A stretch of DNA of 64,000 nt from Candidatus Saccharimonadia bacterium (GCA_035479295.1 DATIIV010000012.1:65010-129009); one strand, 5' to 3'; shown: positions 23,531 through 25,106, counted from the first letter of the stretch. Made by a program: numbers and translations. The notes: generated from the sequence alone by a model not told the origin.

Positions 23531-24283
23531 ATGGCCATTCCAATTCCTCTTACCGGAATCTCTCAGCTTCTCGACTGCATCTTTCTGTTTGTAGCCTGGA
23601 GTTTAGTGGGTCAGCGCCTTAAGCAGGCCGGCGACCAAGCTATCATCACGGTTGGCCATATTTACCGCTACTTTGGCTATTTTGTTCTTTTTAATATCTT
23701 CATGACACTACCATACGCGGTGCTCTACCTTCGCCCGGACTGGTTTCCGGCCGCTATGGGCTGGGGGTATGTGGTGGCTAATATATTCTTGGTTATCTCG
23801 CTCTCTCATTTGTCGCGAATGGTGGCGCAAATGGTGCCGCAGTGGAGCAGCAAAGAACCCCTCATTCATGGTCTTTGGGTGGTGATTAATGTGGTCCTGA
23901 CCGGCCTTAATGTGGTGTATGTGGCTATTCTGGCCCAGCCGGGCTACGATAACGCCAGCGGCGTGACGCGGTTCCACATCCCCGGCGGCCTGGGCGCCAC
24001 GCTGGGCATGATTAGCCTCTTGGCTTACTTGCCGGCGCTCGTGCTCTTCGTTATGAACGCCGTTAAGGGCCACGGTGATCAGCGCCGTCGATCGATCTTG
24101 CTGGCGGCCGGTATGCTGCTTATTATGGTGGTGGGGCCGCTGCACGCGGTAGCCGCTAACTGGGAGGTATTTTTGCTAGCCGACGCCCTCAATGTCGTCA
24201 GCTTGGTGCTATTAGCCGGCGGCGTGCTGTATCGTATTGGCTCCAGCCTGGCCGCTTCGCCCCAGCCGGCTTCGGTCCGCTAG
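23531..24283 (+). CDS. 7-TM membrane protein, tandem paralog A
   Basis: About 7 hydrophobic helices. Clearly similar to the next gene (PxWxxxMxWGYVVxxIFL; GPLHxVAxNW). Confidence 0.55.
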   Translation: MAIPIPLTGISQLLDCIFLFVAWSLVGQRLKQAGDQAIITVGHIYRYFGYFVLFNIFMTLPYAVLYLRPDWFPAAMGWGYVVANIFLVISLSHLSRMVAQMVPQWSSKEPLIHGLWVVINVVLTGLNVVYVAILAQPGYDNASGVTRFHIPGGLGATLGMISLLAYLPALVLFVMNAVKGHGDQRRRSILLAAGMLLIMVVGPLHAVAANWEVFLLADALNVVSLVLLAGGVLYRIGSSLAASPQPASVR

Positions 24284-24347
24284 CTTTTTCTAGCTTTGGG
24301 TCGCTTCATCCATTAGAATAAGCGTAATAAGACAGGAAAAAGGCTTC

Positions 24348-25106
24348 ATGGACATCCCATTAACCGCCATAACAACCGCCATCGGCGTCCTCGTCATGTT
24401 TGGCGCCTGGTTCTTTGTGGGGCAGCGCATGAGGCAGAGCCACGTCGCCGTTCTGCGCCCCGTGCAGCTGTTCAACCAATTCTTTTTGAGCATGGCCGTC
24501 TTCTTTACCATCATGGCCGTGCCGCATATCTGGCTGTTCATCGACCCGAGCCAGTTCCCGATCTGGATGGCCTGGGGTTATGTGGTTGGCCACATTTTCT
24601 TGTACCTGGCCTTCATTAATATCATCCGCATGACCTTTACCATCGTGCCCAAGCTGACGCCCAAGGCGCCGTTGGCCGTAGGGGCCGCTATCGTCGTTAC
24701 CGTGGCGGTCACCATCATTAATGCCGTTACTATGATCTTTGGCACGCGCCCCAGCTACGACTACGTGCAGCATGTCACCCAGTTTAACGCCTCGCCGATT
24801 GTGGGCGCTTCCATTGGGATCTTTGCGGCGCTGGCGGTCTTTCCGCCGGCCATCTTATTTATTGTTAACGCCTTTAAGGCGCAGGGCAATCGGCGGGTGC
24901 GGTCGCTCATTCTGGGCATTGGGCTCATTTTGCTTATGACGGCTGGCCCACTGCACGATGTGGCCAAGAACTGGCAGACTTACATGCTGGCTGATATCTT
25001 CTCGATCTTGAGCATCATCGTCACCGGCACCGGCGTCGTCTACCGCCTGGAGCAGAGCCTCACCGTGGAGCCGCAGCCCGTGCCCGCCCCTACAGCTGGT
25101 CGATGA
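24348..25106 (+). CDS. 7-TM membrane protein, tandem paralog B
   Basis: Paralog of 23531-24283. Its 3' end overlaps the convergent histidine kinase gene by 17 nt. Confidence 0.55.
   Translation: MDIPLTAITTAIGVLVMFGAWFFVGQRMRQSHVAVLRPVQLFNQFFLSMAVFFTIMAVPHIWLFIDPSQFPIWMAWGYVVGHIFLYLAFINIIRMTFTIVPKLTPKAPLAVGAAIVVTVAVTIINAVTMIFGTRPSYDYVQHVTQFNASPIVGASIGIFAALAVFPPAILFIVNAFKAQGNRRVRSLILGIGLILLMTAGPLHDVAKNWQTYMLADIFSILSIIVTGTGVVYRLEQSLTVEPQPVPAPTAGR

Follow-up and report, generated by a model that had tools for sequence, protein, structure and literature searches.

Several bacterial histidine kinases are controlled by separate membrane proteins, such as the polytopic accessory proteins LiaF (PMC3543457), BceAB (10.1101/2020.02.28.969956), SpdC (PMC5854430) and VraT (10.1101/2025.01.23.634444), and accessory membrane proteins of kinases have been reviewed (PMC8534201). 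In the LiaF-LiaS, VraT-VraS, BceAB-BceS and SpdC-WalK systems, the membrane protein is encoded beside the kinase/regulator pair, often in the same operon, and the kinase has membrane helices alone, with no external sensor domain. Seven-helix modules are also tied to histidine kinase signalling in the 7TMR-DISM (RetS/LadS/RgsP), 7TMR-HD, LytS/BtsS-type and MASE domains, and fused seven-transmembrane (7TM) receptor domains have been described for BtsS (PMC10653868) and RgsP (PMC6107284). Sensory rhodopsin II-HtrII and the heliorhodopsins are stand-alone seven-helix proteins that signal to a separate kinase pathway; heliorhodopsins are genomically linked to histidine kinases, with HisKA, PAS and Response_reg domains enriched nearby, Patescibacteria included (PMC8612252). 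Here we describe two tandem genes, TM1 and TM2, which face a sensor histidine kinase gene in a 64,000-nucleotide (nt) stretch of a Candidatus Saccharimonadia genome (GCA_035479295.1, DATIIV010000012.1:65010-129009; called the window below). Their products are members of an unnamed, stand-alone seven-helix family (~230-270 amino acids, aa) of Patescibacteria, and the genes of this family probably encode a third protein component of a histidine kinase/receiver-only regulator system. We conclude that the family is a new, lineage-restricted form of the accessory-membrane-protein/7TM-receptor theme in two-component signalling.

The original prediction for this locus had described two tandem 7TM paralogs of about 250 aa and a convergent kinase gene, and we found the three open reading frames (ORFs) exactly as described (Table 1). 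TM1 and TM2 aligned without gaps across 242 residues with 37% identity (E=7e-57); the similarity is real paralogy and not chance. Both proteins contain the two conserved blocks that had been noticed, WGYVV..IFL (WGYVVANIFL/WGYVVGHIFL) and GPLHxVAxNW (GPLHAVAANW/GPLHDVAKNW). AlphaFold2 gave confident models of both TM1 (predicted local distance difference test score, pLDDT, 92.8; predicted template modelling score, pTM, 0.88) and TM2 (pLDDT 93.7, pTM 0.88), each with seven long helices, inner loops of at most 6 residues, a short disordered tail and, linking helices 4 and 5, a short beta-hairpin. We counted ~11 Lys and Arg residues on the predicted inner loops of TM2 and 2 on the outer ones, and this concentration of positive charge places the N-terminus outside and the C-terminus inside. 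The best fold matches of the models were the 7TM bundles found in GPCRs (G protein-coupled receptors), over 220-225 residues, and GPCRs outscored rhodopsins; a Foldseek search returned no match at E<=1e-3.

TM1 and TM2 had been assigned to no nameable family, and scans with Pfam, NCBIfam and PADLOC likewise gave no model that matched either protein. Sequence searches matched no transporter or enzyme family, and a profile search of the PDB yielded no sequence homolog, the top match (E=0.093) being an unrelated protein. Public exact matches, annotated as hypothetical proteins, are VLI05_02855 and VLI05_02860 from a metagenome-assembled Candidatus Saccharimonadia genome. Among 5.8 billion proteins, TM2 had 41 close homologs, and all of those with a taxonomic name were from Saccharimonadia or Patescibacteria. 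A profile search of 1.84 billion representatives returned 220 clusters at E<=1e-3, 116 of them at E<=1e-10. Of the 150 representatives listed, almost every one is a stand-alone protein of 190-290 aa without an added domain; two members reach 330-335 aa, and their tails matched no domain. Literature searches found no description of this 7TM family.

We then analysed the gene neighbourhood in relatives. Looking up exact proteins and scanning GTDB genomes and JGI metagenomes for patterns yielded 46 loci, several of them mutual duplicates, in which profile and pairwise searches located the family members, kinases and receivers. A family member lies beside a two-component gene, that is, a PAS-HisKA-HATPase kinase and/or a receiver-only regulator, in ~26 of the 33 informative non-duplicate loci, many of which are related by descent, so that the counts are not independent events. 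This linkage spans at least seven gene orders and extends down to 26% identity to TM2 (locus L014). In the window and at L001, L002, L007, L009, L010, L015, L016, L018, L020, L041, L044, L045 and L046, the 7TM gene converges on the kinase gene, which may be accompanied by the regulator gene on the same strand; at L040 it converges on a receiver gene alone. The gene order is co-directional at 11 loci, with operon-like spacing (gaps of at most 81 nt or 4-nt overlaps): kinase-7TM-regulator at L014 (gaps of 9 and 15 nt) and L034, 7TM-regulator-kinase-regulator at L011 (4-nt overlap), 7TM-7TM-regulator-kinase at L027, 7TM-7TM-kinase at L031, 7TM-kinase at L033, kinase-7TM at L030, regulator-kinase-7TM with a second, convergent 7TM gene at L022, and 7TM-regulator, at contig ends, at L013, L026 and L029. 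At L004, L006, L008, L036, L037 and the TM1-type L038 and L043, there is no signalling gene within 5-8 kb. A functional partnership is supported mainly by the persistence of this linkage through so many gene orders and down to such low identity. The association of the membrane genes with a two-component system, as originally predicted, thus stands on conserved adjacency, and the proposed antisense mechanism is not supported. The pair might have turned up in relatives without the kinase; for the most part it does not, and TM2-type genes adjoin an orthologous kinase in most of them.

In the window kinase and its orthologs, ~6 membrane helices follow one another closely, without a sizeable outside loop, and lead into the PAS domain; the top NCBIfam matches of the window kinase (PnpS/WalK/PhoR) were all below cut-off. 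The linked Saccharimonadia kinases form one orthogroup, with 44-63% full-length identity to the window kinase where measured and 31-51% identity to it over the membrane region (first 230 residues). Orthologous kinases in two separate lineages (L015:4465-5670, minus strand; L027:8064-9260, plus strand) have no membrane region and begin with the PAS domain, their alignment starting at about residue 182 of the window kinase, and these soluble PAS-kinases still adjoin the 7TM gene or genes. The 7TM protein is therefore the module's only membrane part in these lineages. The L030 kinase is an exception with two helices, a loop of ~110 aa and a HAMP domain. We could rule out that the 7TM protein is a split-off membrane domain of the kinase (hhalign probability 0.3%). 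A gap of 3 nt separates the kinase gene from the response regulator gene upstream of it, and the regulator's orthologs adjoin the kinase in relatives. A Pfam scan of the regulator showed nothing significant beyond Response_reg, and the protein has no output domain; the partner regulators checked with Pfam likewise consist of a single receiver in the window, L001, L002, L011 and L041, and of two receivers in L014.

Within the 7TM family, the bundle's outer half and the outer hairpin loop show the strongest conservation. In kinase-linked sequences, the near-invariant polar residues are H82 in helix 3, H203 and D204 at the outer end of helix 6, and D216 in helix 7, while the inner face carries the conserved R27, R183 and R233. 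All four polar residues are kept in every kinase-linked TM2-type sequence, and the unlinked copy at L004 carries H203N and D216V. A neighbour-joining tree and signature columns grouped TM1 with members P0052, P0053, P0054 and P0060 in a separate, older clade, with the signature G81A, H82N, Y86V/L and D204A relative to TM2-type proteins and with H203 and D216 retained. Of the four conserved polar residues, TM1, an older and diverged paralog, has lost two. The TM1-TM2 tandem with a convergent kinase operon recurs at L041 (54% and 59% identity), TM1-type genes are also found alone (L038, L043), and separate duplications have occurred in other lineages (L027, L031, L022). Some TM2-type orthologs (P0014, P0017, P0036 and P0007 in alignment A1) share a recurrent C-terminus, ..S-S-N-T-V or ..G-S-N-T-V, which follows an otherwise variable Pro/Ala-rich tail; the window TM2 does not have this ending.

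We next considered whether the convergent arrangement itself has a function, as in the original prediction, which had read the overlap between TM2 and the kinase gene as a built-in antisense or transcriptional-interference device. On this reading, antisense RNA or polymerase collision would impose either/or expression on the membrane pair and the regulator-kinase operon, as a clade-specific add-on. We confirmed the 17-nt overlap: the TM2 stop codon (25104-25106) falls within the kinase reading frame. No terminator-like site was found at the junction, and the mRNAs should therefore overlap at their 3' ends, so that transcripts would read into each other as had been proposed; elsewhere in the region, terminator-like sites occurred at chance frequency (5 versus 3.4 expected). 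A weak promoter match in the 94-nt gap upstream of the regulator gene (Table 1) is a candidate start for a regulator-kinase transcript running into TM2, in a consensus scan that returned 2 sites versus 1.9 expected by chance. In addition, 10 of the 14 convergent loci overlap or are spaced by less than 20 nt. However, the overlapping arrangement is not conserved in relatives. The spacings at the 14 convergent loci, window included, are -50, -23, -17, -4, +2, +4, +6, +17, +17, +19, +47, +75, +86 and +134 nt, and at L041 it is an inserted hydrolase gene, not the kinase, that overlaps TM2 by 50 nt. Antisense is impossible at the 11 co-directional loci, where the 7TM gene runs in the same direction as the kinase and/or receiver gene.

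The sequence of the junction also argued against a regulatory element. On one strand the overlap codes for the end of TM2 (..PTAGR), a variable, low-confidence tail that is not conserved, and on the other for the conserved end of the kinase (..IDQL). The predicted RNA fold of the junction was no better than that of shuffled sequence on both strands (z = 0.20 and 1.12), and an Rfam scan of the window matched only two tRNAs. Tight convergent junctions are expected in compact genomes, and a crude gene map of the window, built from ORFs, showed overlaps at 2 of the 11 convergent junctions and a 15-nt gap at a third. The other overlap, of 14 nt, is comparable and joins unrelated genes, a 441-aa ORF and a GDSL lipase gene, which has the gene for a 742-aa multi-helix histidine kinase directly upstream (Table 1). 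Because the linkage outlasts at least seven gene orders, a mechanism that depends on convergence is disfavoured, and we regard interference between these genes as very improbable. The 17-nt overlap appears to result from the way genes are packed in a compact genome, and it cautions against reading short 3' overlaps in such genomes as regulatory devices without comparative support.

If the 7TM protein is a functional partner of the two-component system, it could act at either end of the pathway. Since the Pfam-checked regulators have no DNA-binding or enzymatic output domain, they need a protein target, and the 7TM protein could be that target: the kinase would sense by means of its PAS domain or membrane region, and the phosphorylated receiver would bind the 7TM protein at its basic inner face, switching a channel, transporter or membrane enzyme. 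The 7TM gene does abut the receiver gene, with 4-nt overlaps (L011, L026, L040) or gaps of at most 21 nt (L013, L014, L027, L029, L034), and the three inner-face arginines are conserved. However, the inner surface on which a receiver would dock is tiny, consisting of the short loops and a variable, low-confidence tail, and conservation is strongest on the opposite side. Loci L020, L031 and L033 hold a kinase and a 7TM gene with no receiver gene within the flanks, and the top fold matches are receptors and not transporters. We therefore favour input over output, on account of the conservation of the outer half and hairpin, the minimal inner surface and the kinase-7TM loci without a nearby receiver gene, and an output role seems unlikely to us.

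The 7TM protein could also be a small membrane enzyme or permease of the same pathway, which makes, imports or modifies the compound monitored by the PAS domain, either as a co-regulated gene or as a 'trigger' transporter. Neither a transporter nor an enzyme family was matched by sequence, and the tight insertion of the 7TM gene between kinase and regulator genes at L014 and L034 is typical of signalling accessories. Matches to HlyIII, the profile of the PAQR/hemolysin-III proteins, came from just 2 of 113 members at E>=0.06, and the predicted N-out topology is opposite to that of PAQR. The combination that marks these proteins, an HlyIII profile match, N-in topology and a zinc site of three His and one Asp, was not found. 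An enzyme or permease is thus an improbable explanation, on a par with the output role.

Taken together, these results suggest a three-component system in which the 7TM protein serves the kinase as its membrane partner for sensing or modulation, a reading to which we assign a probability of roughly 45%. We infer that the protein senses a ligand, contacts the kinase and passes the signal towards it. The bundle, oriented N-out/C-in, would have almost no cytoplasmic mass, and a predicted pocket in its outer half, formed by H82, H203, D204 and D216 under the conserved beta-hairpin loop, may bind an external or membrane-borne signal. The resulting conformational state would be relayed to the partner PAS-kinase, by lateral helix-helix contact where the kinase has a ~6-helix anchor and, for soluble kinases, through the 7TM protein's inner face, which is basic and conserved. 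The kinase would then set the phosphorylation of the receiver-only regulator, which may act via protein contacts. TM1 may modulate TM2 or form a heteromer with it. Several observations weigh against the sensing or modulating role. Seven loci, including the TM2-type L006 and L008, are those with no signalling gene nearby, and the most distant linked clade (L013/L014) keeps, of the four polar residues, H82 alone. With a PAS domain and a membrane region of its own, the kinase could sense unaided, while a receiver-only regulator means that the 7TM protein could equally be the output. Finally, the shared descent of the linked loci reduces the weight of their number.

How does this module compare with the described systems? 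Conserved adjacency to one kinase/regulator pair (~26/33 loci) and a kinase without an external sensor domain, apart from L030 and the soluble kinases of L015 and L027, are found here as in the LiaF, VraT, BceAB and SpdC systems. However, the 7TM family is unrelated, by sequence or by fold, to LiaF, VraT, the Abi domain and ABC permeases. Unlike the LiaF-type systems, the regulators here are receiver-only and not DNA-binding, the kinase is soluble in two lineages, and the contact with the kinase is a predicted one. The bacterial 7TM domains are covalently fused to a kinase or cyclase, and 7TMR-DISM proteins also carry a large external domain, whereas the family described here stands alone. 7TMR-DISM_7TM (PF07695) was the most recurrent weak Pfam match (10 of 113 members at E<=1; best real member E=8.9e-4) and was rejected as below threshold and not co-linear: the family consensus scored 20 bits against a cut-off of 29, and helices 5-7 aligned to profile positions 56-149, with P0151 in a different register. 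Fusion to DISMED and a cytoplasmic signalling domain was not seen, nearly all of the 150 representatives listed being stand-alone. DUF981 and MASE3 were matched weakly by one distant member, P0089, which its close relatives did not reproduce. An artificial family consensus matched DUF6962 with 32.9 bits over the N-terminal half only, and real members gave no match; it is an unconfirmed lead.

Rhodopsins bind retinal through a lysine in helix 7, whereas helix 7 of TM1 and TM2 (209-231) has no Lys and carries the conserved Asp216. When 113 members were scanned at E<=1, the 25 Pfam families listed as matched most often did not include Bac_rhodopsin or Heliorhodopsin, and with neither the lysine nor a profile match, a rhodopsin or heliorhodopsin identity was ruled out. 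With GPCRs the models share the seven-helix bundle, the external N-terminus and the GPCR helix arrangement. Homology to GPCRs and the class motifs (DRY, NPxxY, CWxP) were not found; the sole Pfam GPCR match was 7TM_GPCR_Sra at E=0.47, and the PDB sequence search matched no natural GPCR. At the level of sequence, then, the family has the defining features of none of the known analogues. A more specific proposal, which we put forward as tentative and rather doubtful, is that the family is an undescribed stand-alone receptor of GPCR-type seven-helix fold, which would bind an external, possibly host-derived, ligand in the His/Asp pocket and signal non-covalently to a PAS histidine kinase that is soluble in some lineages, with TM1 and TM2 forming a heteromer of a degenerate and a ligand-competent subunit.

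Table 1. Features of the TM1-TM2 locus and of other parts of the window.
Feature	Position	Strand	Description	Basis
TM1	23531-24283	+	250-aa seven-helix membrane protein, TM1-type paralog clade	
TM1-TM2 spacer	24284-24347	+	64 nt, AT-rich	Read from sequence
Shine-Dalgarno-like AGGAAAAAGG	In 24284-24347	+	Directly 5' of TM2 start codon	Read from sequence
TM2	24348-25106	+	252-aa seven-helix membrane protein, kinase-linked TM2-type	
3'-end overlap of TM2 and kinase gene	25090-25106		17 nt	Sequence
Sensor histidine kinase	25090-26754	-	554 aa; ~6 N-terminal membrane helices, then PAS, HisKA, HATPase_c	Pfam, hydropathy, ortholog alignment
Response regulator	26758-27165	-	135 aa, receiver domain alone	Pfam Response_reg E=8e-23
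Sigma-70-like promoter match	27217-27244	-	TTGCCC-16-TAAAAT with TG; weak	Consensus scan
GH5-fn3 cellulase (GH, glycoside hydrolase family)	27260-29428	-	Just upstream of the regulator-kinase pair	
ORF at second convergent overlap	32710-34035	+	441 aa	
GDSL lipase gene	34022-34750	-	Directly downstream of multi-helix histidine kinase	
Second convergent overlap	34022-34035		14 nt	
Multi-helix histidine kinase	34759-36987	-	742 aa	
Two further large multi-helix histidine kinases and several receiver genes	32284-32679, 34759-36987, 38216-38734, 51913-52299, 53845-56013, 55883-56455			
Repeat protein	21253-22347	+	364 aa; signal-like N-terminal segment, three internal repeats	
tRNA genes	1429-1501 and 1538-1611	+		Rfam

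The window contains 3 histidine kinases among ~66 ORFs, a background against which the share of linked loci can be set. The two other large multi-helix kinases and the several receiver genes (Table 1) are a lot for a small-genome candidate-phyla-radiation bacterium, and no member of the 7TM family lies beside any of them. A second signalling cluster is also present at L041, 1.5 kb upstream of the TM1/TM2 pair (L041:1029-4513, minus strand), and consists of a receiver, a 297-aa unknown protein, a dCache-HAMP histidine kinase and another receiver; an extra divergent receiver gene (10415-10816) follows the 7TM-linked regulator of this locus. The module adjoins a GH5 cellulase gene in the window, and the unlinked 7TM copy at L004 adjoins ricin-lectin and GH5 genes (L004:7131-10544), with a GH16 gene further downstream; the glycoside hydrolase association was not seen at the other loci. 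A LysM-LysM-M23 peptidase gene is convergent right after the module at L013 (1588-2931, minus strand) and L014 (7588-9021, minus strand), two closely related loci of the distant clade with the order kinase-7TM-regulator, the regulator being a double receiver. Each of the three repeats of the 364-aa protein carries a ..CG(T/F)GTTCSA.V.. motif, and its sole Pfam match, to DUF7467, was weak. The two tRNA genes were the only Rfam matches of the window.

Candidate-phyla-radiation bacteria such as the Saccharimonadia have tiny genomes, and many live attached to host bacteria. To our knowledge, almost nothing has been established about how they sense their surroundings. A 7TM protein, a kinase and output-less receivers together make up a testable signalling module specific to this group, and some 220 clusters of 'hypothetical proteins' gain names and partners. 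If the receptor proposal were true, the module would be a 'membrane 7TM receptor plus cytoplasmic transducer', an analogue of GPCR signalling assembled from phosphorelay parts, and a non-fused, GPCR-shaped input device would be added to bacterial two-component signalling.
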